From: an uncultured Erysipelotrichaceae bacterium
Lineage (GTDB): Bacteria > Bacillota_I > Bacilli_A > RF39 > UBA660
DNA: 64,000 nt
Assembly (NCBI GenBank): GCA_902767245.1
Contig: CACXGO010000018.1
Location: 27,708 to 91,707, forward strand
Reading direction: 5' to 3'
Below are positions 15,291-41,402 of this stretch, in pieces (the stretch's first letter is position 1; each line of letters starts with the position of its first letter). The translations under genes were made by a program, and so were the position numbers. A model generated the notes under the pieces. It did no database searches and was not told where the DNA came from. It saw only the letters and a program-made list of their open reading frames with translations.

Positions 15291-15303
15291 TAGGGGGGAT
15301 AAA

Positions 15304-16068: not shown

Positions 16069-16097
16069 AACTGAGTTTGTTTATTACTCAGTTTTTT
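16067..16097. terminator. Bidirectional terminator between the convergent prepilin peptidase and ATPase genes
   Basis: AAAA-CTGAGT-TTGTTTATT-ACTCAG-TTTTTT: an A-run and a T-run flank the hairpin. Confidence 0.7.
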
Positions 16098-21707: not shown

Positions 21708-23231
21708 ATGGATTTAGAACAAATAAAAGAGTTTTTAAAAAAATACATTGTTTATATTTTAATTGGTTTAATACTAATTTTTGTAATACTTTTAATAATT
21801 CCAAGTAAAACTAACAATAGTTCTAAAGTACAAAAATTATATTTTTCTTTATATGGTGATGAAAAAATAACACTCGAAAAAGGTGAAACTTATAAAGAGC
21901 CAGGTTATAATGCATATGATACTGTTCAAGGGAATTTAAATAATAAAGTAATTATAACTGGCCAAGTTGATTCAAATACTGTTGGAGTTTATGAAATAAT
22001 ATATATGGTTACAAATGAAAAAGGTGAAACAAAGACTTTAAAAAGAATAGTAACAGTAGTTGATAAAAAAAATGAAGAAATAATTATAAATGCTACTATT
22101 TCACCAAGTGAGATAACTAACAAAGATGTTACTATTAATTTTTCGGTGACAAGTGGAAGCTATAAATTTATATTAGATCCAGATGGTAATATTAACTATT
22201 CAAACAATGTAAAATATATTGCCAAAGAAAATGGTGAATATGATTTTAGTGTAAAAAATCAAGATGGAACAATAGTTGAAAAAACTATTAAGATATCAAA
22301 TATTGATAAAATAAAACCAACTGGTACTTGTCAAGCTAATATAAAAAATACAAAAACAAATATAACAGTTCAGGCAAGTGATAATTTTGAAATAAAAAAA
22401 TATGAGTTTATACTTGATAATAATAAATATGAATCAAAATTAAATTCATATGAAATTTCAAAAGAAATAAAGAGTGCTAATGTAATTATTTATGATAAAG
22501 CTTCCAATAGTACAAATATCACTTGCAAAATAATTGATAACAGATCATCATCACCATCACCAACACCAACAATTCCAACAACTCCAATTAGTGGGTCTTA
22601 TTATAATGCCGATTTAAAGGCACATGGTCTTAAATATATTATTTATTATCCAGGTAATTTAAATCTTCAAGTTAAGAATCCATTAGTTGTTTATTTACAT
22701 GGAACAGGTGAGTGTAATAATGATATTAGTACTTTAGAAAATGTAACTTTTGTAAAAAACATGAAATCTAAATATTATACCGATGCTGTTTATTTAGCTC
22801 CACAATGTGTATGTAGCGGATACTGGGATTATTGCCTTGATAATTTAAAATCATTAATAGATAAAGTGGTAGTTGATTATAATATAGATACCAAAAGAAT
22901 ATCAATTACTGGAGCTAGTGCAGGTGGTATAGGTGTATATAGTATTATTTCTAAATATCCAAGATTTTTCTCCGCTGCTGTAGTTGTTGCTGGTCGTAAT
23001 AAAGACGGCATTATAAGCAATCTTATATATACTCCGATTCGACATTATCACGGAACACTTGATACTGCTGTATCTTATACAAATGCAAAAGAAAATGTTG
23101 AAGCAATAAAAAGAGCAGGTGGTAACATAGAATTTATATCATTACAAGGTAGGGGACATGATATAAGTGTAACAAATGACGTTTATAACCATACTAATGC
23201 TATTAGTTGGATGATATCTCAAAAGAGATAA
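21708..23231 (+). CDS. Membrane-anchored surface protein: Ig-like (DUF5011-type) domains, P/S/T linker and a C-terminal alpha/beta-hydrolase (esterase)
   Basis: N-terminal TM. The DUF5011-like segment is GYNAYDTVQGNLNNKVIITGQVDSNTVGVYEIIYMVTNEKGE and the linker is SSSPSPTPTIPTTP. The hydrolase has VVYLHGTGE, nucleophile elbow GASAGG and GRGHD. Confidence 0.65.
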   Translation: MDLEQIKEFLKKYIVYILIGLILIFVILLIIPSKTNNSSKVQKLYFSLYGDEKITLEKGETYKEPGYNAYDTVQGNLNNKVIITGQVDSNTVGVYEIIYMVTNEKGETKTLKRIVTVVDKKNEEIIINATISPSEITNKDVTINFSVTSGSYKFILDPDGNINYSNNVKYIAKENGEYDFSVKNQDGTIVEKTIKISNIDKIKPTGTCQANIKNTKTNITVQASDNFEIKKYEFILDNNKYESKLNSYEISKEIKSANVIIYDKASNSTNITCKIIDNRSSSPSPTPTIPTTPISGSYYNADLKAHGLKYIIYYPGNLNLQVKNPLVVYLHGTGECNNDISTLENVTFVKNMKSKYYTDAVYLAPQCVCSGYWDYCLDNLKSLIDKVVVDYNIDTKRISITGASAGGIGVYSIISKYPRFFSAAVVVAGRNKDGIISNLIYTPIRHYHGTLDTAVSYTNAKENVEAIKRAGGNIEFISLQGRGHDISVTNDVYNHTNAISWMISQKR

Positions 23232-23327: not shown

Positions 23328-25262
23328 ATGCGTAAAAATGGCTTTACTTTAGTAGAAATGTTAACGGTTATAATAATATTAGTCATAATAAGTTTGCTTG
23401 CTATTTTTTCAATAACTGCGACTGTTAAAAGCTCAGCGGAAAAATTATATAAAGTTCAGATAGATAGCATTATTGATGCAAGTAGAACATATGCCATAAA
23501 AAATAATTCTATTTTGGCTGACAGTACTGAGATAACAATATGTGATTTAAAAAGATCAAGTTTACTTGATAATGATCTTAAAAATCCTAAAACTGAAGAA
23601 CCATTTGATAATGATTTAATAATAAAAATTATTCGTGATAGAGATGGTGAATTTAAGTTTCAATTTGATGGCATTAAAAAAATGGAAAATTATAATTGCG
23701 ATTTAGATGTTTCTGTTAGTTTAAAAGGGAATTCCCCATTATATGTAAGCCTTGGTTCAATATATGTAGAGCAAGGTATAAATGTAAAAAGAAAAGATTT
23801 AAATTGTACTTATGGTCATGGAACTGCAAGTAATACAGCCTGTTATTATGATTATGTTAAAAGTGGTTCATATAGTTCTGCTTTAAATGGAAATAAATAT
23901 AATAAAGTTGGCACATTTGAAGAAAGTTATAATGTTACTAGTGATTCATTTACGACCTCTATTACAAGAACAATAATAGTTCAAGATAAATCTGCACCTG
24001 CTATTTCAGTTAATTACAAAGGAACCGTTTACAATAATCCTTTTACTGCGAGAATTATAGAGTCTGATTCACCAGCAACTTTTTCTTGCATTGCAGTGGA
24101 TGATTATGATGGTAATGTTGCTTGTAACATTTTGAAAAATGATTATAATAACACTAAAAATCCAGGAACATATGAAATCATTTATAAAGCAAGTGATAAA
24201 AACAATAATGTGGCAACTTTTACAGTTAATGTAACAGTTTTACCAAAAAACAAAAATTTAATTGTTGGATTAAATGTAGACAATGTAAATTGGACAAATC
24301 AGAGCGTTAATTTTAAAATTTATCCATTATACGATAAAAATGGTTGTTCAAAATATAATTATGATTTTGGAAATGGAATTTGGGTTGAAAATGATACCAG
24401 TGAAATATTGAGAAATGGGACTTATAATGTCGGTATTAAATGTGAAAATGGTAATGTTGAAGACTACTTAACATATAGAGTTACTAACATAGATAAAGAT
24501 CCGCCAGTTTTTTCGCAAAGCGAAATAGGAATTAATGTTCAACCAAAAGTGTCTGGTAAAAAAGTTATTATAAATACAACAAATAACATAAAGTATTACA
24601 TTGCAAATGACACAGTTGTCTTATCAGATTCAACTGGAGCCTATGATAGTGGAACGGGTGTTGCTGGTTATAATATTTATATCAATGATGAGATTAATTC
24701 TATAAATGAAATTAGTGCTGAAGGAGTATATGAAATAAAAATTAATGCTTATGATTATGCTTCGAATCAAAGTGATCCTATACTCGCAGGATATGTTGTA
24801 ATAACAAAAAGTATACCAACATGTACATTTTCAAATAGTACAACCAATGCAATATTTAATAATAATGGTGATGTTACATACAATAACGGAATTTATAAGT
24901 TGACTAATAATAATTATCCAATAACAATTTCTTACAGATTTTCGTGCTCTTATGAATACTTCGAAAATGCTGATGTTTTAACAAGACCAAAGCTAAAAAA
25001 ACTTGCAAATTTTTATTTAAGAGAGCAATCGGGTATAAATGGGCAGTATAATCTTGTTGAGTTAGGATCATGGGTATTAGAAGGTGCTCCTGTTTGTGAA
25101 AATAGTAAATGTGTTAAAACTTATAATAATATGATAACACTTAGAATTAATGGTTTAGATGATATAGCATATTTAAATTTAGAAAAAAATTCATTTTGTG
25201 ATGATTTAGATAACTGTAATAATCGTAAAGTTCAATCGCAGGCGCTTGCAAAAGCAAATTAA
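23328..25262 (+). CDS. Modular type IV pilin, 644 aa: a canonical pilin module plus a ~530-aa Ig-like extension
   Basis: The prepilin signal MRKNG/FTLVEMLTVIIILVIISLLA is textbook. Residues ~1-115 look like a complete ComGC/PilE-size pilin (ITICDLKRSSLLDNDLKNPKTEEPF). This is followed by a DUF5011-like segment (AVDDYDGNVACNILKNDYNNTKNPGTYEIIYKASDKNNN) and further beta-rich, Cys-containing domains. Confidence 0.8.
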   Translation: MRKNGFTLVEMLTVIIILVIISLLAIFSITATVKSSAEKLYKVQIDSIIDASRTYAIKNNSILADSTEITICDLKRSSLLDNDLKNPKTEEPFDNDLIIKIIRDRDGEFKFQFDGIKKMENYNCDLDVSVSLKGNSPLYVSLGSIYVEQGINVKRKDLNCTYGHGTASNTACYYDYVKSGSYSSALNGNKYNKVGTFEESYNVTSDSFTTSITRTIIVQDKSAPAISVNYKGTVYNNPFTARIIESDSPATFSCIAVDDYDGNVACNILKNDYNNTKNPGTYEIIYKASDKNNNVATFTVNVTVLPKNKNLIVGLNVDNVNWTNQSVNFKIYPLYDKNGCSKYNYDFGNGIWVENDTSEILRNGTYNVGIKCENGNVEDYLTYRVTNIDKDPPVFSQSEIGINVQPKVSGKKVIINTTNNIKYYIANDTVVLSDSTGAYDSGTGVAGYNIYINDEINSINEISAEGVYEIKINAYDYASNQSDPILAGYVVITKSIPTCTFSNSTTNAIFNNNGDVTYNNGIYKLTNNNYPITISYRFSCSYEYFENADVLTRPKLKKLANFYLREQSGINGQYNLVELGSWVLEGAPVCENSKCVKTYNNMITLRINGLDDIAYLNLEKNSFCDDLDNCNNRKVQSQALAKAN

Positions 25263-25280
25263 TAGAAAGGAATGATATTT

Positions 25281-26744
25281 ATGCGCAAATTTTTGACATT
25301 ATTAGTATTACTAGTGGCGTTTTTACCAAAAATTTCAGCAACTTCATTAACCACTGAAACTAATGCCTTTAATAATCGAATCAGCACGGAAACTATTGAT
25401 TTAAAGGCTGCATTAAATAGTTTTAATAATTATTTAACAAACAATTCAAATAAAATATCTAATGCGTTAGATATCAATTTGATTAAAACTATCGCTACAA
25501 ACTTAAAAAATAATAATTATACTGCAGCTTTTTCAGCTCTAGAAAATGCTGTAAATGATGATAATTTAACCAATTTAAATCTTTCATCAAAAATTAATAA
25601 TTATTTGAATTTAAAATCTGATTTAATTAGTTTTGTAAATACAAACAAAGCAAAATTAGATGTTGAAACAGGAACTGATGAAGGACTTGAATGTTCACTT
25701 TCATTACTTGACCAAATAAAACAATCATTTAATGAAGTAAAGCCAATTTTCTCAACAACAATTGAAAAGCTAGGAAAAACATTTTCAACGGTTATTAAAA
25801 ATCATATTGCAGAAAAGAAAAATATTAATAATAGTGAACTTAATAACATTATAGATGAATATAATGAGTTAGCTTCATTGTTAGCAAATTTGGTAGAAAA
25901 ATATTACAATTCTTTAGATGATTACAAATCAACTTTTAAAGTTATAAGTGGAAGCGAAAAATTATTTGAATCGTTAATTAGAAAGAAATTTAAAACAGAT
26001 TTAGATAATTTGCTTGAAAATGCTGAAGCTACTTTAAAAGCCCCAGTTAATGAGTTTATTAATAAAAGATGGGATATTTTAGAAAATGATGTAACTGAAC
26101 TTATCGAAAGTGATAAAACAATACCAGAAAAAAATGAAAATATATATTCAAAAATAGATAAAGTTGAAGCAGTAAATGAAAAATTCATTAATGCAATCAA
26201 TAATATTATTGGTAAATTAGATATTAATTCAATTAAAGATAAATTAAATAAAGTATTAAATCGAGGCAAAAATGAATTTGCTCATGCAATTGAATATTTG
26301 GAAGCTCACCTTATAATAGGTGAATATGATATTGAATTGGTTGATGGTCATGATGCAAAAGTTACCATTGATCGTGCTAAAGAATTAATTATTTTGGATC
26401 GCTTGTTTGGAATTCAAGAATTTAAGAATCAAATTAGATTAGCAAATAATTTAGGAACATTAAAGTTTAATCTTGGTACTTATACTTATGTTGCTAATAA
26501 ATCAACAGTATCGGTAGAAGATAATAATGAAACGAAAAAAGAATACAAGATAATTGTTAAAGGTGATGTAAATAATAATGGAAATGTTACAATATCCGAC
26601 GCAGTTGAAGCAGCATATTATTCGTTAAATGATCGTGATCTTGATGAGTATCAAGTACTTGCAGCTGATATGAATAATAACAATACTGTAACTATTTCTG
26701 ATGTATATCTAATTGCTTTAAGAGCTTTGGAAGGAGGTAATTAA
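25281..26744 (+). CDS. Secreted helical protein with a C-terminal type-I-like dockerin
   Basis: Signal peptide MRKFLTLLVLLVAFLPKISA and ~400 aa of helix-prone sequence. The C-terminal duplicated Ca-loop/helix pair is GDVNNNGNVTISDAVEAAYY...AADMNNNNTVTISDVYLIALRAL. An alternative start is at 25272. Confidence 0.6.
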   Translation: MRKFLTLLVLLVAFLPKISATSLTTETNAFNNRISTETIDLKAALNSFNNYLTNNSNKISNALDINLIKTIATNLKNNNYTAAFSALENAVNDDNLTNLNLSSKINNYLNLKSDLISFVNTNKAKLDVETGTDEGLECSLSLLDQIKQSFNEVKPIFSTTIEKLGKTFSTVIKNHIAEKKNINNSELNNIIDEYNELASLLANLVEKYYNSLDDYKSTFKVISGSEKLFESLIRKKFKTDLDNLLENAEATLKAPVNEFINKRWDILENDVTELIESDKTIPEKNENIYSKIDKVEAVNEKFINAINNIIGKLDINSIKDKLNKVLNRGKNEFAHAIEYLEAHLIIGEYDIELVDGHDAKVTIDRAKELIILDRLFGIQEFKNQIRLANNLGTLKFNLGTYTYVANKSTVSVEDNNETKKEYKIIVKGDVNNNGNVTISDAVEAAYYSLNDRDLDEYQVLAADMNNNNTVTISDVYLIALRALEGGN

Positions 26745-26745
26745 A

Positions 26746-27873
26746 ATGAAGAAATTTCTTTTACTATTTGTAAGTTTGTTTATGCCATTTTTGGTTAATG
26801 CGGCCAGTGTTAGTATGACTGGAACCACTACTATTTCGCCAGGTGAAACAGTTGCACTTCCAATTATTGTATCTGATAGTAATGAAATACATGGTGTACA
26901 AATGGTTATGACATTAAGTGGATCAGATTTTGACTTATTAATTGATAAAACTGTTTCATCTTATCAAATTCTTGTAAAGAAGAAATTAAGTAATGGATAT
27001 GGTTTATCTATAATTAGTACAAGTAAAAAAATTGCAAATAAAGGAACACTTGCTAAAATATATATTAAAGCTAATTCATCAGCAACACCTGGGAACAAAG
27101 CAACTTTAACTTTAAAGGATATAATTTTTGCAACAGGAGCTGAACTTAATGATACAAAAGCAAGTAATTATTCAAAAACGCTTACAGTAGGTGCAGTAAA
27201 ATCAACAAACAATTATTTAAGTTCATTAAAAGTTGAAGGATATAATATCTCATTCAATAAAAACACAACTGCTTATACAATAAATGGTGCAACAAGCGGA
27301 AGTGCTCTTAAGGTAACAGCAAATGCTGAAGATGAAAAAGCAAATGTTAAAATTAATTCACCAAAATTAGTTTCTGGAAAAAACACAATTACAGTAGTTG
27401 TTACCGCTGAATCTGGAGCTAAAAGAACATACACAATTACTGTAAATGTCCCAACCGAAACAGTTGATAAGAGTGCAATAGATTTAAAAACATTAGAAGT
27501 TAAAGGCTATGATATTAAATTTGATCCTCAAAATACAGATTATGTCTTAAATGTAAACAATGATGTTGAGAAAGTAGAAATTAATTCCACATTAAAAGAT
27601 GAAACATCATCTAAAACCATGAATGGACCAGATAAATTGCAAGTTGGTGAGAACTTGTATACAATAACTGTAACTGATAAGTCTGGGAATAAAAAGGTTT
27701 ATAAGTTGACAATTAACCGCTTGGCAAAAGAAAAAGAATGTGAAGTATGTAAAGTATGTGACGAGTGCGAAAGCGGAAGTTCAATTTGGAAATTTTTAGC
27801 AATAGCCCTTGTAATTGTTACGTTAGCTGAAACAATTTATATGGTATCAATGCGTGACAAAAAGCAATTTTAA
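26746..27873 (+). CDS. Membrane-anchored cohesin protein: cohesin-like domain, two cadherin-like beta-sandwich domains, a Cys cluster and a C-terminal TM
   Basis: Signal peptide. Cohesin-like pattern SVSMTGTTTISPGETVALPIIVSDSNEIHGVQMVMTL...GTLAKIYIKANSSATPGNKATLTLKDIIFA. There are two copies of the LSSLKVEGYNISFNKNTTAYTI...GKNTITVVVTAESGAKRTYTITV type. Then ECEVCKVCDECESG, then the TM FLAIALVIVTLAETIYMV and tail RDKKQF. Confidence 0.6.
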   Translation: MKKFLLLFVSLFMPFLVNAASVSMTGTTTISPGETVALPIIVSDSNEIHGVQMVMTLSGSDFDLLIDKTVSSYQILVKKKLSNGYGLSIISTSKKIANKGTLAKIYIKANSSATPGNKATLTLKDIIFATGAELNDTKASNYSKTLTVGAVKSTNNYLSSLKVEGYNISFNKNTTAYTINGATSGSALKVTANAEDEKANVKINSPKLVSGKNTITVVVTAESGAKRTYTITVNVPTETVDKSAIDLKTLEVKGYDIKFDPQNTDYVLNVNNDVEKVEINSTLKDETSSKTMNGPDKLQVGENLYTITVTDKSGNKKVYKLTINRLAKEKECEVCKVCDECESGSSIWKFLAIALVIVTLAETIYMVSMRDKKQF

Positions 27874-27877
27874 TTAA

Positions 27878-27907
27878 AAGATAAACATTTGTTTATCTTT
27901 TTTTTTA
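27878..27907 (+). terminator. Strong rho-independent terminator ending the pilin-dockerin-cohesin unit
   Basis: AAAGATAAAC-ATT-GTTTATCTTT followed by a 7-nt T-run. Confidence 0.8.
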
Positions 27908-27952
27908 TTGAAAAAAACTTTCTCCTGTTATATAATTGAAATGAGGGATTTT

Positions 27953-28642
27953 ATGGAAGAAATTAATTTAACTGATTTATTAAAATATTTTATAAGTAGA
28001 ATATTAATTATTATTTTAATTACAATTTTTTGTGGTTTACTTGGATCAATGTATTCACTATTTTTACAAACACCTATGTACAAATCTAAAACAACATTAC
28101 TTTTAGCTAATGTTTCAACTTTTGATTCAAATAATGTATCTGGTAATTTATCTACAGATATTACATTGAATCAAAAACTTGTTTCAACATATCGTGAAAT
28201 AATTAAAAGTAAGAGAGTATTAAAACAAGTAATAAGAAAATTGGATTTAGATTTGGAATATGATACTTTAAAAAACATGATTTCTGTTGATTCAATATCA
28301 AATACTGAAGTCATATCAGTAACAGTAACCAACAAAAGTCCAGAGGCTGCTGCTTATATTGCTAATGAAGTAGCTAATACCTTCTGTGATGAAATAGTTA
28401 ATATTTATCAAATTCAAAATGTAAACATAATTGATAAAGCTGAAGTAAGTAGTAATCCATATAATATTAATTTAGTTAAGCAAATAATTATTTATTTATT
28501 AATTGGTTTTGTATTAGGGTGTGGAATTGTATTCATTATTTACTATTTTGATACAACAATAAAAACAAAAGAAGAAATTGAAGAAAAAGTAGGCTTACCA
28601 GTTTTAGGTATTATTCCTTTAAAAAAGGAGGCACGTAAATGA
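27953..28642 (+). CDS. Wzz/CpsC/YwqC-type polysaccharide co-polymerase (BY-kinase transmembrane modulator)
   Basis: GAGGG RBS before ATG 27953. Two TMs flank a Wzz-like loop (YKSKTTLLL...LVSTYREIIKSKRVLKQV). The ATGA overlap with the kinase gene indicates coupling. Confidence 0.8.
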   Translation: MEEINLTDLLKYFISRILIIILITIFCGLLGSMYSLFLQTPMYKSKTTLLLANVSTFDSNNVSGNLSTDITLNQKLVSTYREIIKSKRVLKQVIRKLDLDLEYDTLKNMISVDSISNTEVISVTVTNKSPEAAAYIANEVANTFCDEIVNIYQIQNVNIIDKAEVSSNPYNINLVKQIIIYLLIGFVLGCGIVFIIYYFDTTIKTKEEIEEKVGLPVLGIIPLKKEARK

Positions 28643-29316
28643 AAAATGATTTAGTTGTAGTTACTTCACCAAAAGCTATCATAAGTGAAGGTTTTAGAAC
28701 CCTAAGAACAAATTTACAATTTTCAACTATTGATTCTAAAATTCAAACAATAGCTGTTGTTAGTTCAATGCAAGGAGAAGGTAAAAGCTTTGTATCAGCT
28801 AATTTAGCTTGTGCGTTTGCTCAAGCAGGCGAAAAAGTATTATTGATTGATTGCGATATGAGACGTGGTCGTTTACATAAAATATTTAATATTGAAAACG
28901 AAAATGGGTTTTCTAATTTACTAATATCTGATATTAAAGATTTTAATTCATATATTAAAAAAACTGAAATTAAAAATCTTTCAGTTTTACCAATGGGAGC
29001 AATTCCTCCTAATCCAGCTGAATTAATTGCAAGTTCAAAAAACGAAAAATTAATGGAATTATTAAAAGAAAAATATGACGTTATTATATATGATTGTGTA
29101 CCTGTAACAGGGCTTACAGATTCGCTTATTATGTCAAAGTTAGTTGATAAAACAATAATTGTTGCAGCATCAAAAGTAACACCATTAGAACTTTTGCAAA
29201 ATACTAAAAAATCACTTTTAAATGTAGGTGCTGATATTGCTGGTGTTGTTTTTAACCGAGTTAGTACTGAAAGAAGTATTTATGCTAATAAATACTATGG
29301 TAAATATTATTCATGA
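28639..29316 (+). CDS. Bacterial tyrosine kinase, cytoplasmic subunit (CpsD/CapB/YwqD type)
   Basis: Walker A SSMQGEGKS, Walker A' LLIDCDMRRG, Walker B VIIYDCVP, and a C-terminal Tyr cluster YANKYYGKYYS. Confidence 0.85.
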   Translation: MKNDLVVVTSPKAIISEGFRTLRTNLQFSTIDSKIQTIAVVSSMQGEGKSFVSANLACAFAQAGEKVLLIDCDMRRGRLHKIFNIENENGFSNLLISDIKDFNSYIKKTEIKNLSVLPMGAIPPNPAELIASSKNEKLMELLKEKYDVIIYDCVPVTGLTDSLIMSKLVDKTIIVAASKVTPLELLQNTKKSLLNVGADIAGVVFNRVSTERSIYANKYYGKYYS

Positions 29317-30080
29317 TAGATATCCACTCACACATCTTATATGGAATTGATGATGGAGCTAAAAACATTGATGACAGTGTTAGTCTAATTAATAGTGCTA
29401 TTAAAAACAATGTTAAGAAAATTATTCTTACACCGCATTATATTGTAGAATCAAATTCAATAACTCCAAATAAGACCAAAAAAGAAATATTGAATAAAAT
29501 AAAAAAACAAGTTTCTTCAGAAGTTGAACTTTATTTGGGTAATGAAATATATATGGATGATGATATTGCTTCATTAATTGATGCTAATAAAATTATGCCT
29601 TTAGCAAATAGCAAATATTTATTAATTGAGCTTCCAATATATAATGAATATCCAAACTTAGAAAACAAATTGTTCTCTTTAAGAAATTTGGGATACAAAA
29701 TTATAATTGCTCATCCAGAAAGATATTACTATTTTAAAAATGATTTTAGTAAATTACTTAAGCTTTGTAAACAAGGCATTTACTTTCAAGGTAATTATAT
29801 GTCACTTTATGATATATATGGTAAAAGTACAAAAAAATTATTTTTAAAAATATTAAAACATCATTGCTATAGTTTTATGGCGAGTGATATTCATATGCCT
29901 AGTCAAAAATATTATGATAAAATTAGCGATGCCAAAGCTAAAATAGCAAAAATTACAAATAAATCTTATTGTGATGATATATTTTATAACAATGCGGATA
30001 AAATAATAAAGAACGAAGAAGTAGAAAATAGTTATAAAGAAAAAATATCAATTTTTGATAGAATAAGAGGGAATAAATGA
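29313..30080 (+). CDS. PHP-family protein-tyrosine phosphatase (CpsB/YwqE type)
   Basis: N-terminal MIDIHSHILYGIDDGA, then TPH, AHPERY and SDIH metal-binding motifs. Confidence 0.85.
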   Translation: MIDIHSHILYGIDDGAKNIDDSVSLINSAIKNNVKKIILTPHYIVESNSITPNKTKKEILNKIKKQVSSEVELYLGNEIYMDDDIASLIDANKIMPLANSKYLLIELPIYNEYPNLENKLFSLRNLGYKIIIAHPERYYYFKNDFSKLLKLCKQGIYFQGNYMSLYDIYGKSTKKLFLKILKHHCYSFMASDIHMPSQKYYDKISDAKAKIAKITNKSYCDDIFYNNADKIIKNEEVENSYKEKISIFDRIRGNK

Positions 30081-31219
30081 AAAAGAAGTTAATAATATTA
30101 TTCTTGTTTCTAATATTTCCTTTTTTTGTATCTGCATATACAAAAGAGGATATAATTAAACTTGTAGACAATCAAAAAACATGTGATCAAGAAACAGAAA
30201 ACATGTATTCAAAATATTTTAATATATATTCGAGATTGTTAAAAAAGAAAGATGTATCTGAAGGTGACTTGAATCAAATTCATACAAATTTAACTAAAGC
30301 CTTGGTAATTGCAAATAAATATAACTTATGCAGTATTGATGATCTTGATAATATACCAAAGAAAGAGAAAAGCGAATTATATAATTACTTGTATGATAGT
30401 TATAAATTAATTTTAAAATCAAAAAATCTGGATGATACAGAAACAAATGTTATTTATAATGGCGATGGTACAATAGATATATATGAAAATGGTGAACACT
30501 TAGAACAAATCAAAACAGCAAAAGATACATTTAACTATGTTGGATTAAGCAAATACTTTGTTTATTTAAAATACCTTTTACCATTTAGTTTAATCGTTAT
30601 TTTTATATTTGTGATGAAAACAAGAAAAAAGATTTTTATTAATGAAATACTTATAATTTTACTAGTGATTGATATTATTCTAACTTTAGTATATTTTAAA
30701 GCAGGAAATAAAATATATGATGCTTATAATCTTATAAAATCTATGAGTTATATTGAAAATAAAGAAGTAACTAAAATTGAAGTCAAAAATAAAAAAATTA
30801 TTAAATATCCCAGTTTTGGTTCAAAATATGGTGTATTAAAAATAGATAATCTTGGAATCAACTTACCAATTTTTTACGGTGACTCCAAAGAAATATTAAA
30901 AAAAGGCATTGGACATAGTCAATCATTTCCAGGTTTTGGAGGGACAACTATATTAAGTGGCCATAATTCAAAGATTTTTTTAAATAGTTTAAAAAATATT
31001 AAGATTTCTAGTTTAATTGAAGTTGAGACTGATTATGGAGCTTTTATATATAAAGTAAGAAAAATTGAAATATTAAATACTGATCAATATTCAAAATTAG
31101 AAAAAGGAAAAAATGAAATTATTTTGTATACATGTTATCCATTTGATGAAATAGTTTATTCAAATCAGAGATTTGTTGTTTATGCTAGTTTAATAGAATC
31201 GAAGTGGTTGAATGGTTAA
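30077..31219 (+). CDS. Sortase-domain protein with an atypical ~230-aa N-terminal extension (signal peptide, extracytoplasmic domain, two TMs)
   Basis: The C-terminal ~145 aa carry the sortase His (TILSGHNS), Cys (ILYTCYPF) and Arg (NQRFVVYA) contexts. ATGA overlap with the phosphatase gene. Confidence 0.7.
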   Translation: MKKKLIILFLFLIFPFFVSAYTKEDIIKLVDNQKTCDQETENMYSKYFNIYSRLLKKKDVSEGDLNQIHTNLTKALVIANKYNLCSIDDLDNIPKKEKSELYNYLYDSYKLILKSKNLDDTETNVIYNGDGTIDIYENGEHLEQIKTAKDTFNYVGLSKYFVYLKYLLPFSLIVIFIFVMKTRKKIFINEILIILLVIDIILTLVYFKAGNKIYDAYNLIKSMSYIENKEVTKIEVKNKKIIKYPSFGSKYGVLKIDNLGINLPIFYGDSKEILKKGIGHSQSFPGFGGTTILSGHNSKIFLNSLKNIKISSLIEVETDYGAFIYKVRKIEILNTDQYSKLEKGKNEIILYTCYPFDEIVYSNQRFVVYASLIESKWLNG

Positions 31220-31976
31220 AAGAATAATTTTTATTACACTAATAACATTTTTAATATTAGTTTCACTTTCTTTTGTTGTTTATTCAAAAATTTTTAATAA
31301 AAATCAAATCGTTCAGGAATTTAATCGTATCAATTATTATGATTATGTATATAAAGAAATAAATAAAAATTTGGAGTTAGAGTTACCAAATTCGGAGCTA
31401 TCATACCTTTATTTTAATTATTTAACTATTTCACAAGTAAAAAAAGATATTAATGTTGTTTTAGATTCATATTTAAGCAAAAAAGATAATGATGTTAAAA
31501 CAAAATTTTATAATAACATTATAAATAATTTTGAAAACAAAAATGATGCATATGTAAAAGAATTAGCAAAAAGATTATCAAATACATATTATAGTGGTTT
31601 ATTTAGTTTTGATAAATTAGATAAATTTATCGAAAAATTGCCATATCGAAATATATCTAAGAAAGTTGCAATTGTTAGTTTATTTATAACAATTTTAATA
31701 ATACTTTTATCAATAAAAAAAGACTTAATTGATATATCAATTTCATTTATTACAAGTGGAATAATATTTATAATTCCCAAGATTTTTATTCATTTTAAAA
31801 ATATTTTATTAAATTTTTACTATTATAATAAATCGCTTTCTTACTTTATTAAGAATTATATATTTCATTTGATTAATATATTCTTTAAGATTGGATTTAT
31901 ATTGATGATTTTAGGCCTAATTGGTTTTACTATACATTATATTAGACATTTTAGATTGACTAGCAGTGTAAAGTGA
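31212..31976 (+). CDS. Polytopic membrane protein of unknown function, translationally coupled to the sortase gene
   Basis: 8-nt overlap (AATGGTTAAA). N-terminal TM, a ~130-aa soluble segment and 3-4 C-terminal TMs. No motif recognised. Confidence 0.5.
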   Translation: MVKRIIFITLITFLILVSLSFVVYSKIFNKNQIVQEFNRINYYDYVYKEINKNLELELPNSELSYLYFNYLTISQVKKDINVVLDSYLSKKDNDVKTKFYNNIINNFENKNDAYVKELAKRLSNTYYSGLFSFDKLDKFIEKLPYRNISKKVAIVSLFITILIILLSIKKDLIDISISFITSGIIFIIPKIFIHFKNILLNFYYYNKSLSYFIKNYIFHLINIFFKIGFILMILGLIGFTIHYIRHFRLTSSVK

Positions 31977-32010
31977 GATATAATTTAAGTAATAATAGGA
32001 GGAGTGAATT

Positions 32011-32445
32011 ATGAATTTGATTAATTTTTTAGCCGTAGGAGTAAAATGTGGCGATACTGAAATTGGTGGGATGATTGTAGGAATTATTGGGACTATTTAT
32101 AATGGAATTAAGATAGGGGTGCCAATAATCTTAATAATTGTTGGTATGGTTGGAATGGGGAAGGCCATAGCCCAACAAAAAGAGGATGAAATAAAGAAAG
32201 CCCAAAGCACATTAATTAAACAAGCAGTAGCAGCAGTAATAGTATTTTTAATGTTTCAATTAGTACAACTTGGAATGAGTGCTTTAAATGTTAAAAACGA
32301 TTCAAATTGGCAATGTGTTAAAATGATATTAATTCCACCAAAAGATGGTGACGACTGTAAAATGGATGACGGTAATGGTGGCGGATGGAGAATTCTCAAT
32401 GAAAATACCAATGATGCAATGTGGGAATGCCAAAGTAGGGGATAA
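32011..32445 (+). CDS. Two-TM hairpin small protein, paralog 1 of 4 (TrbC/VirB2-like topology)
   Basis: GGAGG RBS. Conserved core IYNGIKIGVPIILIIVGMVGMGKAIAQQKEDEIKKAQSTLIKQAVAAVIVFLMFQLVQL. The C-tail is variable and contains WQC...C...WEC. Confidence 0.65.
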   Translation: MNLINFLAVGVKCGDTEIGGMIVGIIGTIYNGIKIGVPIILIIVGMVGMGKAIAQQKEDEIKKAQSTLIKQAVAAVIVFLMFQLVQLGMSALNVKNDSNWQCVKMILIPPKDGDDCKMDDGNGGGWRILNENTNDAMWECQSRG

Positions 32446-32451
32446 AATTCA

Positions 32452-32886
32452 ATGACTATGATTAATTTCTTAGCGACAAAAGGAATAATTTGTGCAGGAA
32501 TCAGATTAGAAGGAGATATTGTCGGAATTATTCGAACCGTTTATAATGGAATAAAAATAGGAGTTCCTTTAATCTTGATTTTTGTTGGAATGTTTGGCAT
32601 GGCCAAAGCAATCACTATGCAAAAGGAAGATGAAATAAAAAAAGCTCAGAATTTACTTGTTAGACAAGCAGTAGCAGCAGTAATAGTATTTTTAATGTTT
32701 CAATTAGTACAACTTGCAATGAGTGTAATTAAAGTAAAAAATTCATCAAATTGGTCTTGCGTAAAAGCTGTTTTAGTTGAACCAGATTCTAAAACAAAAT
32801 GTTATACAGATGATGGAAAAGAAGCTTATTGGGGCTCTGACCACTTAACTGATTCATATTGGCAATGTGATGGAGCGGCTGGTTAA
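32452..32886 (+). CDS. Two-TM hairpin small protein, paralog 2 of 4
   Basis: Same core (VYNGIKIGVPLILIFVGMFGMAKAITMQKEDEIKKAQNLLVRQAVAAVIVFLMFQLVQL). It shares a 53-nt identical run with paralog 1 and long identical runs with paralog 3. Confidence 0.65.
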   Translation: MTMINFLATKGIICAGIRLEGDIVGIIRTVYNGIKIGVPLILIFVGMFGMAKAITMQKEDEIKKAQNLLVRQAVAAVIVFLMFQLVQLAMSVIKVKNSSNWSCVKAVLVEPDSKTKCYTDDGKEAYWGSDHLTDSYWQCDGAAG

Positions 32887-32918
32887 AAACTTATTATAAA
32901 TAAAATTGAGGTGATATA

Positions 32919-33263
32919 ATGTTTTTCTTAGATGAAATGTGTGGTGCATGTGCATCCGCTGGTCTTGGGAATATTCCTAATCAGGTAGTTAATATAATAC
33001 ATATTGTTTTTGTAGCAATAAAAATAGGAGTTCCTTTGATTCTAATTTTTGTTGGAATGTTTGACATGGCTCGCGCAATCACTCTACAAAAGGAAGATGA
33101 AATAAAAAAAGCTCAAAATTTATTGGTAAGAAAAGCAGTAGCAGCAGCTTTAGTGTTTTTAATGCTTTCTTTAGTCAGCACATTATTTAGTGTTGTTGGC
33201 GGTGAAGGATCAGAGAATATTTGGAGTTGCGTTAATGCACTTTTAAATGGTATATGTTCATAA
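32919..33263 (+). CDS. Two-TM hairpin small protein, paralog 3 of 4
   Basis: GAGGTGA RBS. Core AIKIGVPLILIFVGMFDMARAITLQKEDEIKKAQNLLVRKAVAAALVFLM. The N-tail has CGAC and the C-tail has WSC...ICS. Confidence 0.65.
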   Translation: MFFLDEMCGACASAGLGNIPNQVVNIIHIVFVAIKIGVPLILIFVGMFDMARAITLQKEDEIKKAQNLLVRKAVAAALVFLMLSLVSTLFSVVGGEGSENIWSCVNALLNGICS

Positions 33264-33293
33264 AAAGTATCAATGATACTTTTTGTTTTTTTT
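33263..33293 (+). terminator. Rho-independent terminator after paralog 3
   Basis: AAAAGTATC-AAT-GATACTTTT followed by a T-rich run. An extended -10 TGTTATAAT (TATAAT at 33309-33314) follows and could drive paralog 4 separately. Confidence 0.7.
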
Positions 33294-33332
33294 AAAATAA
33301 TTTTATGTTATAATGATTTTGGTGACTAATCT

Positions 33333-33656
33333 ATGTTTTTGGATATTATGTGTGCTGGAACTGAACTTCCAGATTATGTTGGATATTATGTATCATTAAT
33401 ATATTTTGCAATACGTATTTGTGTTCCAATTTTATTAATTATTGTTGGAATGATTGATATGGGAAGAGCAATTGTCTCTAAAAAAGAAGAAGATGTTAAA
33501 AAAGCTCAAGGACTATTATTAAAAAAAGTAGTTCTTGGAATAATAGTATTCTTACTTCCTTACTTTGTTGAATTAGTTATTAAGATATTTACTAAAGATA
33601 ATGAATTAGTTGATTGTATTAAAAAACTTATAGATTATAGAACAAATTTATTTTAG
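33333..33656 (+). CDS. Two-TM hairpin small protein, paralog 4 of 4 (most divergent)
   Basis: Core AIRICVPILLIIVGMIDMGRAIVSKKEEDVKKAQGLLLKKVVLGIIVFLLPYFVELV. It has its own promoter-like box and terminator. Confidence 0.6.
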   Translation: MFLDIMCAGTELPDYVGYYVSLIYFAIRICVPILLIIVGMIDMGRAIVSKKEEDVKKAQGLLLKKVVLGIIVFLLPYFVELVIKIFTKDNELVDCIKKLIDYRTNLF

Positions 33657-33677
33657 ATTGCATTGCAATCTTTTTTA
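33655..33677 (+). terminator. Rho-independent terminator after paralog 4
   Basis: AGATTGC-ATT-GCAATCT followed by TTTTTT. Confidence 0.65.
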
Positions 33678-33722
33678 TTTTCTGTCGAACGATTGTATGC
33701 TATAATTGAATAGGTGATTAAA

Positions 33723-35918
33723 ATGGATTCATATATAAAAGGTAAATACAAATCTGATATATTTAGATCTGAAAAAGGCTATGTTATTGGAATTTTTAAG
33801 ATAACCGAAACTAATATTGATGATTTAATTGAATTTATTAATCACACAATTACGATAACTGGATATTTTTATAATTTAAATGAAAATGATAATTATATTT
33901 TATTTGGAGATGTTGTTAATCATCCTAAATACGGAATTCAATTTAGTGTTTCAGAAAGTGAAACCATAAAACCAACTGATAAAGATGGTATTATAGAATT
34001 TCTTTCAAGTGACCTATTTCCAGGCGTTGGTGAAAAGTTAGCAACAAAAATAGTTGATACCTTAGGTGAAAATACAATTGATCTTATTTTAGATGATAAA
34101 AGCAATTTATTTAACATTCCTAAAATATCAAATAAAACTGCAGAAAAAATTTATAATATTATGGCTACTTATGAAAATAGTCATAAAACAATAGTATATT
34201 TGTGTGATATAGGTTTTAACAGCAGTGAAGCATTATTAATTTATAATACATATCGCAATAATACACTTGATAGATTAAATGAAAACATATATGAATTTAA
34301 TGAAATAAATGATATATCTTTTTTAAAAGTTGATCGAATTAGAGAAAAATTAGAAATTAAAAATGATGATCAAAGAAGAATTAAGGCTTGTATTTTATAT
34401 ATTATGAAGTATATAACATATCAAAATGGTGATACATATTTATCATTTGATTTAATATATAATGAAGTCTTAAAATATTTAAATATTGGAATACCAGAAT
34501 CTGATTTTGCAAGTTATTTAGAAGAACTAAGCAAAAGTAATAAAATAGTAATTGATAATGATAAATATTATCTAAAAGAAATATTTTCTTCTGAAGTAAA
34601 TATTTCAGGAAGAATAAAAGAAATAATTAAAAATAATAAAAAATATAAAAAATTAAATGATTATTTAGAAGAAATAGAAGTTTATAATAATATCAAATAT
34701 AATTTTAAACAGAAAGAAGCAATTAAATCAAGCTTAATAAATGGTGCAACAATTATAACTGGAGGACCAGGAACCGGTAAAACAACAATTATCAAAGCCA
34801 TAATTTTGCTATATCAAACTTTGAATAAATTAAATGATAGCGAATTAATTAATGAGGTTTTATTACTTGCTCCAACTGGAAGAGCAAGTAAACGTTTAGC
34901 AGAAGCTACAAATATTGGAGCTATGACAATTCATCGTTTTTTAAAATGGCATAAAGAATCTAATTCATTTGAAATAAATGAATATAATAAAGATTTTACA
35001 AAAAAATTTATTGTTGTTGATGAAGCAAGTATGATTGATATTAATTTATTTGACTCTTTGTTAAAAGGTCTTGGCAAGGATATTCAACTGGTTTTGGTTG
35101 GTGATTATAATCAACTTCCTAGTGTGGGGCCTGGAATGTTATTGAAAGATTTAATTGATTCTCAAATTGCAAATACTATTTATTTAGATCTTTTATATCG
35201 CCAAAGTAATAAATCATTTATTCCAATCCTTGCTGATAATATTAAAAATGGGGTAACTGATAATATCCTAGGAAAGGTAAATGATTATGTATTTTTAGAA
35301 TGTAATCGCTTTAATATTAGATCAAATATTAAAAAAATTTGTGAGCAATTACTTGAAAAAGGTGTTAGTTTAACAAATCTTCAACTTTTGGCGCCAATGT
35401 ATAAAAGTATGAATGGAATTGATAATTTAAATCGTGATTTACAAGATATTTTTAATCCATATCAGAATCAAAAAGAAATAAGTGTTGGAGAATTTAAATA
35501 TCGAGTTGGCGATAAAGTTATTGAACTTGTTAATATGCCAGATGAAAATATTTATAATGGCGATATTGGATATATCACAGATATCATTTTATCCAATGAG
35601 AGTGAGTCCAAAAAAAACGAAATAATTGTTAATTTTGATGGAAATTTTGTTAAATTTTTACCTAAAGATTATAACAAAATAAAACTTGCTTATATTATTA
35701 GTATTCATAAATCTCAAGGTAGCGAATTTGATATTGTAATTATGCCACTTAGTTTAGAATATAATAAAATGTTATATCGAAAACTTATTTATACTGGAGT
35801 GACAAGAGCTAAAAGTAAATTAATATTAATTGGGGAATTAGAAGCATTTAAATATAGCATTAATAATACAAATGAGTATTTAAGAAAAACATCGCTTTTA
35901 AATCGCTTAATTTCATAG
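33723..35918 (+). CDS. recD2: RecD2-type SF1B 5'-3' DNA helicase
   Basis: N-terminal OB/HhH region (LFPGVGEKLATKIV), Walker A ITGGPGTGKTT, Walker B VVDEASMID, LVGDYNQLPSVGPG, an SH3-like insert, and IHKSQGSEF...YTGVTRAK. Confidence 0.88.
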   Translation: MDSYIKGKYKSDIFRSEKGYVIGIFKITETNIDDLIEFINHTITITGYFYNLNENDNYILFGDVVNHPKYGIQFSVSESETIKPTDKDGIIEFLSSDLFPGVGEKLATKIVDTLGENTIDLILDDKSNLFNIPKISNKTAEKIYNIMATYENSHKTIVYLCDIGFNSSEALLIYNTYRNNTLDRLNENIYEFNEINDISFLKVDRIREKLEIKNDDQRRIKACILYIMKYITYQNGDTYLSFDLIYNEVLKYLNIGIPESDFASYLEELSKSNKIVIDNDKYYLKEIFSSEVNISGRIKEIIKNNKKYKKLNDYLEEIEVYNNIKYNFKQKEAIKSSLINGATIITGGPGTGKTTIIKAIILLYQTLNKLNDSELINEVLLLAPTGRASKRLAEATNIGAMTIHRFLKWHKESNSFEINEYNKDFTKKFIVVDEASMIDINLFDSLLKGLGKDIQLVLVGDYNQLPSVGPGMLLKDLIDSQIANTIYLDLLYRQSNKSFIPILADNIKNGVTDNILGKVNDYVFLECNRFNIRSNIKKICEQLLEKGVSLTNLQLLAPMYKSMNGIDNLNRDLQDIFNPYQNQKEISVGEFKYRVGDKVIELVNMPDENIYNGDIGYITDIILSNESESKKNEIIVNFDGNFVKFLPKDYNKIKLAYIISIHKSQGSEFDIVIMPLSLEYNKMLYRKLIYTGVTRAKSKLILIGELEAFKYSINNTNEYLRKTSLLNRLIS

Positions 35919-37949: not shown

Positions 37950-38021
37950 GTGTCAACTTCTTTTTTGTTTTAATGCAAAAAATGGCGATTTTTGGTATAA
38001 TAATAAGGGAAGGTGAATCAT

Positions 38022-41000: not shown

Positions 41001-41402
41001 AGTCTATTTATTAAAGGAACATCTTATAATATTGGAAACTCTTATGCTCCAAGTAAAGAAGTAAAGCGAAGTATCATCTTTGAAAATAAAAAAACTTATG
41101 AGAGATTTGCATTTGATGTTGGTTCAATTGTTGGAATAGATATTCCGCTTAATACAAGTGATGGATTTACGCGTGAACGTGGATGGTTTGAAAAAACGAT
41201 TGATATTAGTTCAATTCCAGTTGGAGATTATATAATATATGTTCAAACAAGTGTTGATGCATTAAATGATTTTGGTGAATTAAATGATATATTTATGAAA
41301 GATTTGAGCAAAGTTTCATCAACATTTAATTCTAAAAAAGTAACATTTACATTAAATCAAAATAAACGATTTAGAATTGAAATGCATATAGAAGCCATTT
41401 AG
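38022..41402 (+). CDS. Large secreted cell-wall hydrolase: SH3b domains, a GH73 N-acetylglucosaminidase, three Ig-like (DUF5011-type) repeats and an unknown C-terminal region
   Basis: Signal peptide MKKLKLLILFLILLAVDVKA. SH3b-like RVRTAPTTKEDNQISTIQANSIYNFVEKIEAEGYIWYKI. GH73 motif GVNALLMFGTAINESGNGTSALALFKHNLFGQGAYD...YASDPYWGEK. Repeated DLEDGDLTDK...VDSNTVGEYKIIYKVTD units. Confidence 0.75.
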   Translation: MKKLKLLILFLILLAVDVKALSCDKKYSIEAVDSAAIHEAIGCTDDYNEAYKLMREYPSTYLKVATIYHDNVLINARYAVVNLAGRSGLTNLYDNKNLKGTRYTYFDGNWGSDAAFIDYDIEKNTIKIKLSGAVGWVASSKADIIPISTIYGNTVTALRAIRVRTAPTTKEDNQISTIQANSIYNFVEKIEAEGYIWYKIGFNNEYAYIAGKKISNGETYVKEASSYNLKTYYYINSSENLMHYYRAKTSQITINLGPTLKIFKQNTKYYSFDGNYFYLNLEDMLDDYYDGTYERAFNKDEPYYNYYLYLPTHNLSGYTAEDLNQIIKNKGYKRSPDPNTVYYTLEDGWTSADRSGVSALYDSGEDFIKVQETYGVNALLMFGTAINESGNGTSALALFKHNLFGQGAYDSCPITCARTFDTIYDSIVGHAQLTGNSYANPNNTYFYGSFYGNKGSGFGVNYASDPYWGEKTARLAYQNDKQYGGQDFNANTLGIKQTYEAIPIKKAPSDNAANIYLLKNNKNGHLVSNMSYIVTEKVKDEKGNYWYKVYTDASLDKNQNLVNSNYNFNYSYGYIKAEYLYVANHETEISAENKSIYRGETIDLTKDVIAIDLEDGDLTDKLVIIGEVDSNTVGEYKIIYKVTDNSRYTTTKEIVVTVLPSEAPIIEAKDIEIKQYRKFNPLDYVKAYDTYGNILKNVEVLNNNVDINKVGQYELTYKVAYEKFNITKKIKVTVIKDEEPVLNAINRKIKLNEEFNFMTGVSATDIEDGDLTSKVTYEGIVDTTKIGDYEVTYTVKDSVNQSVSKKVKITVEEIEYIKKSGEFGFNELSFKNSKLNINGFLAIKDTNNTKNDNITYDLIVRNNDTNEDIIYPLERFIEGAPEKHYSDSKYDYSATWFKGIISLDNLKQGEYTLYVRARKDNMEAISLFRNIFGKYMTTKASSGKKGFLFRNNNYLDTYPIELFVYENGLITNTENNSLINMINSYKEIRLNENSLFIKGTSYNIGNSYAPSKEVKRSIIFENKKTYERFAFDVGSIVGIDIPLNTSDGFTRERGWFEKTIDISSIPVGDYIIYVQTSVDALNDFGELNDIFMKDLSKVSSTFNSKKVTFTLNQNKRFRIEMHIEAI

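Follow-up and report, generated by a model that had tools for sequence, protein, structure and literature searches.

A CpsC/CpsD/CpsB-type tyrosine kinase trio coupled to a sortase with a predicted fused substrate domain in a Bacilli-like firmicute

The 64,000-nucleotide stretch analysed here (the window) is part of contig CACXGO010000018.1 of an uncultured Erysipelotrichaceae bacterium, a spore-forming Bacilli-like firmicute with a GC content of about 25%. It possesses, at 27953-31976, five intact open reading frames (ORFs), all on the + strand. They encode in order a Wzz/CpsC protein, a CpsD-type tyrosine kinase, a CpsB phosphatase, a 380-amino acid (aa) sortase and a membrane protein, here called Mem5 (Table 1). 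The first three gene junctions are formed by ATGA each, while the sortase/Mem5 junction is ATGGTTAA. An earlier note made from the sequence alone had described five overlapping genes for a Wzz protein, a bacterial tyrosine kinase (BY-kinase), a PHP phosphatase, a sortase and a polytopic protein; the ORF coordinates and junctions agree with the overlaps, and Pfam, TIGR and transmembrane (TM) scans with the domain calls. The same gene order was found in more than 20 independent contigs, therefore the arrangement is not due to chance. The two best promoter-like matches in the region 25000-33800, with 11/12 positions each, are the site directly before the Wzz gene and a second one at 31956-31984, and as consensus matches only they flank the five-gene unit exactly. 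The hairpin found after the preceding cohesin gene is too rich in AT for the G+C rule of the terminator scanner; judged from its sequence, it is likely a terminator dividing the upstream operon from the five-gene unit. The start of the Wzz gene is the ATG at 27953, which has a GAGGGA ribosome-binding site 5' of it, and not the TTG at 27908.

The sortase is composed of a signal peptide (aa 1-20), an extracytoplasmic domain (21-150), a first TM segment (TM1, 159-181) followed by KTRKK, a second TM segment (TM2, 186-223) and the catalytic domain (235-380), a layout in which the signal peptide, extracytoplasmic domain and two TMs noticed earlier are all recognized. The match to PF04203 covers aa 254-372 (3.4e-20, 72.5 bits against a cutoff of 26.6). 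There are 84 full-length homologues, down to 32% identity. An alignment of 57 homologues shows no variation at His296, Cys353 and Arg365, and the triad is aligned with that of B. anthracis SrtD (PDB 2ln7; E 1.4e-14, 33% identity), so the concern that the domain might lack its catalytic residues on proper alignment is removed. Foldseek with the sortase barrel retrieved sortases only among the top 50. The AlphaFold2 model built from 57 sequences (predicted local distance difference test score, pLDDT, 83; predicted template modelling score 0.68) shows a helical N-domain with a three-stranded sheet, an exposed NYVG loop, two long helices and the sortase barrel. The N-domain, named SrtN, has pLDDT of 79-83.

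The origin of this unusual layout is suggested by the relatives. A metagenome scan revealed that this sortase subfamily has many shorter members (210-246 aa), with the signatures GHNN, LILYTCYPF and RFFVYA. In every one of these split loci with an intact upstream ORF, the gene directly 5' of the sortase encodes a 183-227 aa protein with a signal peptide, and in nearly all of them the C-terminus consists of a motif, about 20 hydrophobic residues and a basic cluster. The motifs are VIKATGD, IKTTGA/V, LKITGT/P, VKKTGV, IRETGL and VQTGS, with no clear TG in the protein of one locus (L030), and the basic clusters are RK, RKK, RRR, KKRG or KTKK. The SrtN protein of locus L007 passes the LPXTG_anchor model TIGR01167 with 18.8 bits against a cutoff of 15.9. 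When the profile of the fused N-domain (N-terminal 200 columns) was compared with the profile of the split SrtN proteins, hhalign gave 94% probability (E 1.4e-7, 134 columns). Pairwise BLAST of the fused N-domain against the L007 protein is weak (E 0.004), and the homology rests on the profile-profile comparison. The spacing is also nearly the same in the L007 and window proteins: 19 and 20 residues from E[ND]G to the motif glycine, and 23 and 24 residues from this glycine to the basic cluster. In the fused family the motif is K-[LF]-N-Y-V-G, with N in 54/57, Y in 55/57, V in 55/57 and G in 57/57 homologues, and the NYVG stretch is the most conserved part of the N-terminal half of the protein. 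Two of the 57 homologues have threonine in place of the valine (KMTYTG, KLTYTG).

On the basis of these comparisons, the window sortase is a homologue of the SrtN substrate fused head to tail with its sortase, the two being split in relatives. TM1 and KTRKK are the old sorting signal of the substrate, and TM2 is the anchor of the once separate sortase. The two TMs before the catalytic domain are thus explained, since a SrtN protein with its sorting signal has been joined to a sortase with its own anchor. In L007 the SrtN and sortase genes overlap by 8 nt, therefore a small change would fuse them. The layout for which the sortase had been called atypical is real, while its extra domain is better read as a fused substrate homologue. 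The signal peptide, NYVG, TM1 and KTRKK give the window protein the features of a tripartite sorting signal, from which cleavage is predicted, and the likely substrate is the sortase's own N-terminal domain and not the cohesin protein encoded upstream. This anatomy of the fused sortase and its cassette is held with high confidence. Four distant fused homologues (P0060, P0078, P0081 and P0084) have SrtN domains interrupted by a low-complexity insert rich in Ser/Asn/Thr/Gly, at most about 35 residues long, between the last helix and the beta-sheet (alignment columns about 130-165), and several split SrtN proteins have Ser/Thr/Pro-rich linkers ahead of the motif. These inserts and linkers may be wall-spanning or glycosylated segments.

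In classification, the sortase is nearest to class D, which is the best-scoring class in NCBIfam, with scores below both class D cutoffs (NF033746 and NF058671; 88.7 against 165 and 96.5 against 140). The split relatives also score under these cutoffs; NCBI annotates them as 'class D sortase'. The class D enzymes SrtD of B. anthracis (2ln7) and SrtD of C. perfringens (4d70) are the closest neighbours of the catalytic domain in sequence and structure, and share with it the His-Cys-Arg triad and the TCYPFD motif. Unlike class D, in which the signal is LPxTA/LPxTG, the cognate signal here would be [IVL][KQR]xTG in the split form or NYVG in the fused form, without proline, and the cassette has an obligate Mem5 partner and a link to capsule (cps) loci.

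Table 1. Features of the five-gene unit and of the genes directly before it. Positions are those of the window.
Feature	Position	Strand	Details
Secreted protein, 490 aa, C-terminal type I dockerin	25272..26744	+	PF00404, 26.7 bits against a cutoff of 22.9
Membrane-anchored cohesin protein, 375 aa	26746..27873	+	cohesin, two cadherin-like domains (PF12733), CxxCxxCxxC cluster, TM
AT-rich hairpin and T-run	27877..27907	+	after cohesin gene; sequence read directly
Promoter-like site TTGAAA-17-TATAAT	27908..27936	+	11/12 positions; 17 nt 5' of Wzz ATG
Wzz/CpsC-like chain-length and kinase-activator protein, 229 aa	27953..28642	+	PF02706, 9.6e-18
CpsD-type cytoplasmic BY-kinase, 225 aa	28639..29316	+	TIGR01007, 192 bits against a cutoff of 108
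BY-kinase Walker A, GEGKS	28774-28788	+	
BY-kinase Walker A', LLIDCDMRR	28840-28866	+	
BY-kinase Walker B, VIIYDCVP	29080-29103	+	
BY-kinase C-terminal Tyr cluster, YANKYYGKYYS	29281-29313	+	
CpsB-type PHP phosphotyrosine phosphatase, 255 aa	29313..30080	+	N-terminus MIDIHSH; PF19567, 1.8e-57, full length
Fusion protein, 380 aa	30077..31219	+	sorted-protein domain, relic or active sorting signal, sortase nearest class D
SrtN domain (aa 21-150)	30137..30526	+	five helices and three-stranded sheet; Cys36 and Cys85 near-invariant
NYVG motif (aa 153-156)	30533..30544	+	position of the [IVL][KQR]xTG motif in split relatives
TM1 (aa 159-181) and basic cluster KTRKK (181-185)	30551..30631	+	putative hydrophobic and charged sorting-signal parts
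TM2 and stalk helix (aa 186-223)	30632..30745	+	putative N-terminal membrane anchor of ancestral stand-alone sortase
Sortase catalytic domain (aa 235-380)	30779..31216	+	PF04203, 2ln7 match, Foldseek
Catalytic His296 codon	30962-30964	+	
Catalytic Cys353 codon	31133-31135	+	
Catalytic Arg365 codon	31169-31171	+	
Mem5 membrane protein, 254 aa	31212..31976	+	N-terminal TM, about 120-aa extracytoplasmic helical domain, three C-terminal TMs

The CpsB/CpsC/CpsD (Wzh/Wzd/Wze) proteins are the tyrosine phosphoregulatory module of Firmicute capsule loci of the S. pneumoniae type. By their sequence features, the first three genes of the unit belong to this CpsC/CpsD/CpsB-type BY-kinase system and are predicted to have tyrosine phosphorylation activity. 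The Wzz protein has two TMs (aa 13-31 and 178-196) with a large outside loop, and scores 164 bits with TIGR01006, under the cutoff of 296. Like in the S. pneumoniae type, a split two-TM Wzz-like activator, a P-loop kinase with a C-terminal tyrosine cluster and a PHP phosphatase are present and translation is coupled; in relatives, a variable cps region of serotype-like character lies beside the module. Unlike in the S. pneumoniae type, the gene order is C-D-B and not (A)-B-C-D, no CpsA/LCP gene lies alongside, no priming transferase follows, the sortase cassette comes next, and the whole is detached from any synthesis genes.

Mem5 has four hydrophobic segments and no Pfam or NCBIfam family match. 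The fused-type and split-type proteins are homologous in profile comparison (hhalign 99.7%, E 4e-25; the split-type profile leaves out L013, a fragmentary fused-family locus). Mem5 adjoins the sortase in nearly every locus with downstream sequence, and an exhaustive profile search found 258 representative clusters, nearly all of 230-315 aa. Mem5 is thus an obligate component of the cassette, its third. Only Y42, D79 and Y126 are well conserved, which makes catalysis less likely than a role in scaffolding or regulation.

To place the module among its relatives, loci (numbered with the prefix L) were gathered by sortase similarity alone, hence the association with cps genes described below is not an effect of ascertainment. 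The loci span 24-62% GC, and their catalytic domains were clustered at 60% identity in 17 groups. All nine groups with a fused sortase have Wzz-kinase-CpsB directly upstream and the membrane protein directly downstream (9/9), and in every group with long flanks, Wzz/kinase or cps genes lie within 10 kb or less. The close relatives L003, L009 and L011 (49-58% identity) keep the synteny of the window, consisting of a pseudopilin-like protein, dockerin, cohesin, the five genes, small paralogs and RecD2, and are free of cps genes. L010 (38% identity) is a separate stand-alone module without a cps set. In distant relatives with 31-38% sortase identity, the five genes and their overlaps are unchanged but lie directly 3' of a full, variable cps set. 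The module closes such a cluster in 7/7 of the distant relatives with long upstream flanks, namely L001 (L001/L002), L004, L005, L018, L091, L092 and L093. These sets include Wzy_C, GT1/GT2, a Polysacc_synt flippase, ATP-grasp TupA-like proteins, UDP-glucose dehydrogenase, epimerases, pyruvyl transferase, LicD and VanZ. TupA-type ATP-grasp genes recur in them (L001 2140-3009 and 4276-5388, L004 310-1242, L091 2224-3141) and the L001 cluster also has ATPgrasp_ST, which hints at an amino-acid-decorated, teichuronopeptide-like polymer in the distant clade.

The split cassettes are also positioned near polysaccharide genes. In L034, L082, L087 and L090 the cassette is divergent from a Wzz-kinase-Bac_transf-NTP transferase-epimerases-GT8-GT1 series, in L033 and L007 it lies ahead of Bac_transf/GT genes, and in L055 behind GtrII-GT2-MatE. 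L083 shows the permuted order SrtN-SrtC-Mem5-Wzz-kinase-CpsB (SrtC being the sortase of the cassette) on one strand in one operon with 4-nt overlaps. In L023 (8444-10639) and L026 (6062-8242) a single ORF of 731/726 aa joins Wzz, kinase and sortase and is followed by Mem5. It is composed of Wzz (15-110), GNVR, kinase P-loop region (283-468), a tyrosine cluster, a TM and sortase (583-704), with consistent membrane topology. Such a Rosetta-stone fusion argues that kinase and sortase may act in one complex. A SrtN-like gene lies about 6 kb off on the other strand, beside radical-SAM and ABC-transporter genes. The earlier note had suggested that tyrosine phosphorylation controls protein anchoring or assembly 'rather than' capsule synthesis. 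The coupling between the BY-kinase trio and the sortase is real and under selection, as observed in the nine fused groups, the permuted L083 and the fusion of L023/L026; the exclusion of capsule synthesis finds no support in view of the cps clusters found in all seven distant relatives.

The picture in the window itself is different. Pfam scans of 50 window ORFs, nearly all of those of at least 100 aa, detected no glycosyltransferase, Bac_transf priming transferase, Wzx/Wzy or LCP gene, in agreement with the absence of capsule synthesis genes reported before. Nor did exopolysaccharide (EPS) glycosyltransferases or other synthesis genes appear in the precomputed Pfam hits on the genes called within about 7.7 kb and about 4.8 kb past the window ends, some 12 kb in total, where there are only AddAB-type helicase/nuclease genes, an M23 peptidase and MscL. 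A priming transferase, glycosyltransferases, flippase and polymerase in the same locus, by which a Wzx/Wzy locus is recognized, are thus missing here and present in L001, L004, L005, L018 and L091-L093. No window ORF has a canonical C-terminal LPxTG-type signal, as also stated before. Two candidates, LPGTG in a small multidrug-export membrane protein and LPITS located 20 aa from the end of a 309-aa protein, were rejected as no TM and basic tail follow.

The two genes directly upstream fit the Pfam definition of a cohesin-dockerin pair. The cohesin domain scanned alone passes PF00963 with 27.1 bits against a cutoff of 24.1. In BLASTP, the 490-aa dockerin protein resembles a 478-aa protein (1e-15), and the 375-aa cohesin protein a 266-aa protein (1e-6 / 1e-5), both encoded 3' of the module in L001. 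L004 and L005 also have this association, according to profile hits. By these matches the pair travels with the five genes, being placed upstream of them in the clade of the window and downstream in the one linked to cps genes (L001:12034-14281). The domain scan and a motif search bear out that the cohesin protein is without a recognizable sorting motif. Its C-terminus, put forward previously as a possible sortase substrate, was rejected as such, since it has no glycine motif before the TM, unlike the SrtN signals; what is conserved there is the CxxC cluster and 'IWK'. Like in the cohesin-dockerin complexes of gut Firmicutes, genes for a type I dockerin and a cell-bound cohesin protein are neighbours. 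Unlike in those complexes, the cohesin is held by a TM helix and cysteine cluster and not by a sortase signal or S-layer homology domain, enzyme domains are absent, and the pair travels with a cps-type module.

Three known systems resemble the unit in part. In the gut pathobiont M. gnavus ATCC 29149, the srtB4 cluster (RGna_12030-12060) ends a variable cps region with a conserved block, in which the sortase gene is accompanied by LCP and BY-kinase/phosphatase genes; deletion of srtB4 abolishes capsule presentation, for which no mechanism was proposed, and genes near sortases of this clade encode candidate targets with C-terminal sorting signals (PMC13121745, 2026). The likeness is one of gene arrangement: a sortase with a small upstream gene, a BY-kinase/phosphatase block and a position at the cps-cluster end. 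The M. gnavus block has an LCP enzyme, which is absent here, and its substrate and enzyme are separate, whereas here they are fused. SrtB4 was placed by its authors in a class-B-like clade (PMC13121745), whereas the sortase here is nearest to class D; the primer-encoded peptide QNPDIYAW of SrtB4 also looks class-B-like, which is a weak inference. The srtB4 primers of the paper's supplement were not found in the relatives' loci collected, and a Ruminococcus-type split sortase used as query gave no M. gnavus entry among the 120 matches listed. In Actinomyces oris, an LCP enzyme glycosylates GspA, which is a sortase substrate (PMC6381275). The GspA-LcpA-SrtA system, in which a substrate is loaded with glycopolymer and its wall anchoring displays the glycan, is the template for the idea of a carrier; it uses a housekeeping class E-type sortase and an LCP enzyme, while no LCP gene is linked here and glycosylation of SrtN would be an analogy only. 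In diderms, the PEP-CTERM/exosortase (EpsH) system combines a tripartite C-terminal signal and a processing enzyme tied to EPS loci (PMC1569441). The NCBIfam models of XrtA-associated Wzz and tyrosine kinase match the window proteins weakly. Exosortase is unrelated to the sortase fold, being polytopic, found in diderms and provided with many substrates per genome, against one dedicated substrate predicted here.

On balance, the five genes are probably a conserved module for assembly and regulation that belongs to a surface-polysaccharide locus of the Wzx/Wzy type; the module carries a SrtN-sortase fusion and is separated from the sugar-synthesis genes. The module would join two units that co-occur widely in Firmicutes. 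One is the CpsC/CpsD/CpsB-type tyrosine-kinase trio. The other, a dedicated sortase cassette, consists of the small secreted SrtN, which bears a sorting signal of its own at the C-terminus, SrtC (nearest to class D) and Mem5; in the window lineage, SrtN and SrtC are fused head to tail. The sortase domain is predicted to attack NYV|G (V155|G156), in cis or on a neighbouring molecule, so that the SrtN domain would be freed as a thioester on Cys353 and passed to a cell-wall nucleophile where the Wzz/BY-kinase complex organises polymer export. Wall-bound SrtN could then serve as anchor, adaptor or carrier by which the polysaccharide stays on the cell. Here the module has parted from the variable sugar genes and lies behind the co-travelling cohesin-dockerin pair. 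What the sequences show is the anatomy, homology, conserved linkage and fusions; we infer that NYVG is cleaved, that a wall nucleophile is the acceptor and that polysaccharide display is served. Such a mechanism of anchoring and display is plausible because of the precedents of M. gnavus srtB4 and A. oris GspA. For the cassette the proposed function is possible, with a chance somewhat short of even. The fuller form of the idea is more doubtful. It describes a 'self-loaded' sortase with one substrate in cis, cut at NYV|G and planted in the wall beside the Wzz/BY-kinase export complex, and takes SrtN-SrtC-Mem5 as a widespread, previously undescribed Firmicute device tying capsule or EPS to the cell.

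Several observations weigh against a role in polysaccharide display. The ORFs scanned over about 76 kb here include none for polysaccharide synthesis, and the module may serve something else in this genome. No LCP gene was found beside the cassettes in the gene tables of the loci examined, which leaves an A. oris-type glycan-carrier route without a local enzyme here. SrtB4 is probably of another sortase class, so the precedent is by analogy and the parallel may be convergent. The SrtN fold is without a known relative, as the PDB search gave no match at E <1, and Mem5, with its few well-conserved residues, has no assignable role. NYVG has valine instead of threonine at P1 and no proline, and could be an uncleaved pseudo-substrate or a structural relic. 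The absence of synthesis genes is also what speaks for the interpretation of the earlier note, in which the kinase and phosphatase control protein anchoring or surface assembly, for example of the cohesin-dockerin complex, independently of polysaccharide. The cps-less arrangement kept in L003, L009 and L011, and separately in L010, and the dockerin and cohesin genes travelling with the module in both clades point the same way. This account is nevertheless unlikely, as the same seven genes close a complete cps cluster in the sister clade, split cassettes of unrelated lineages also adjoin cps genes, a glycine-containing motif such as the SrtN signals possess is missing before the TM of the cohesin protein, and cps genes may lie elsewhere on the 875-kb contig. 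That the locus is a functionless, decaying remnant of a cps locus is scarcely credible. Linkage of a complete cps set in relatives, from which a rearranged remnant had been thought to follow, was indeed found in all seven, and the module is detached from synthesis genes here. It is not decaying, because its motifs are intact and the cps-less arrangement is kept in at least three other contigs, those of the close relatives, and independently in L010; the five ORFs are also intact with tight translational coupling, and homologues at 49-60% identity keep the arrangement and the invariant residues.

The remaining doubt concerns the fate of the SrtN domain. It might be a permanent accessory, such as a regulator, polymer binder or lid, with NYVG as an uncleaved pseudo-substrate gating the active site of an enzyme which acts elsewhere or not at all. 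The change of threonine to valine at P1 in 55/57 homologues is the isosteric one expected if cleavage is suppressed and binding kept, and a non-canonical role fits the lack of any other window protein with a sorting signal. We consider this improbable, since the catalytic His, Cys and Arg stay invariant, the motif, TM1 and basic cluster of the tripartite signal are kept at their original spacing and the threonine is retained in two homologues; a single-use enzyme would also be unusual, though possible. Alternatively, the sortase could link SrtN domains into a pilus-like fibre, or to dockerin/cohesin proteins, and not to peptidoglycan. Lys23 is invariant near the mature N-terminus, and class C sortases score nearly like class D in structure and sequence searches. 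The SrtN model, however, is a small helical domain with no pilin-like immunoglobulin (Ig) fold or YPKN-type motif and the NCBIfam class C score is far under its cutoff (54 against 160), which makes fibre formation very improbable.

The BY-kinase trio and sortases with dedicated substrates are already known, and a cps-linked sortase has one recent genetic precedent. Within the literature searched, three points are new: SrtN-SrtC-Mem5 as a defined unit, the systematic tie of this cassette to Wzz/BY-kinase including the kinase-sortase fusion, and a naturally occurring protein in which a sortase and its likely substrate are fused. Curated models are lacking for SrtN and Mem5, and general sortase models, but no class model, are passed by SrtC. 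The annotation is corrected accordingly, as the protein need no longer be read as a substrate-less sortase that carries an unexplained domain. Over the whole GC range given above, Firmicutes link the cassette to Wzz/BY-kinase and cps genes, up to a fusion with the kinase. Retention of the capsule in Gram-positive bacteria is thought to rest on LCP enzymes. If true, a self-loaded cassette would explain why M. gnavus needs a sortase for capsule display, and the fused version would be a compact testable system for the role of sortases in polysaccharide assembly, with one polypeptide and one predicted cleavage site.

Apart from the five genes, the window has genes for type IV pili and competence, for RecD2 and a large glucosaminidase, and for housekeeping and sporulation functions. 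The pilus and competence genes (13239-17412), upstream of the module, include a 683-aa T2SSF protein, a prepilin peptidase and a T2SSE ATPase (- strand). The first gene of the dockerin-cohesin operon (23328-25262) encodes a 644-aa pseudopilin-like protein that has Ig-like domains and a prepilin N-methylation signal, and two leucine-rich repeat proteins with the same prepilin signal are found upstream of the module in L010. Directly 3' of the module, four tandem paralogs (32011-33656) of 107-144 aa, apparently with two TMs, share the core KIGVP...GM..M.KAI..QKEDEIKKAQ, which is kept in L003, L009, L011 and L013; the sole one scanned (32011-32445) gave no significant Pfam/NCBIfam match. The glucosaminidase (38013-41402) is a 1129-aa secreted protein with SH3 and several Ig-like domains and has the same place in L003 and L009. 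At 1943-3868 on the - strand there is a 641-aa arylsulfotransferase (ASST; PF05935, 1e-101), a periplasmic-type enzyme in a low-GC spore-former. Just 5' of the pseudopilin-dockerin-cohesin operon, 21708-23231 encodes a 507-aa protein with an N-terminal TM, Ig-like surface domains and a C-terminal alpha/beta-hydrolase (S9/esterase), and ORFs of 511-513 aa, alike in length only, occupy this position in L009 and L011.

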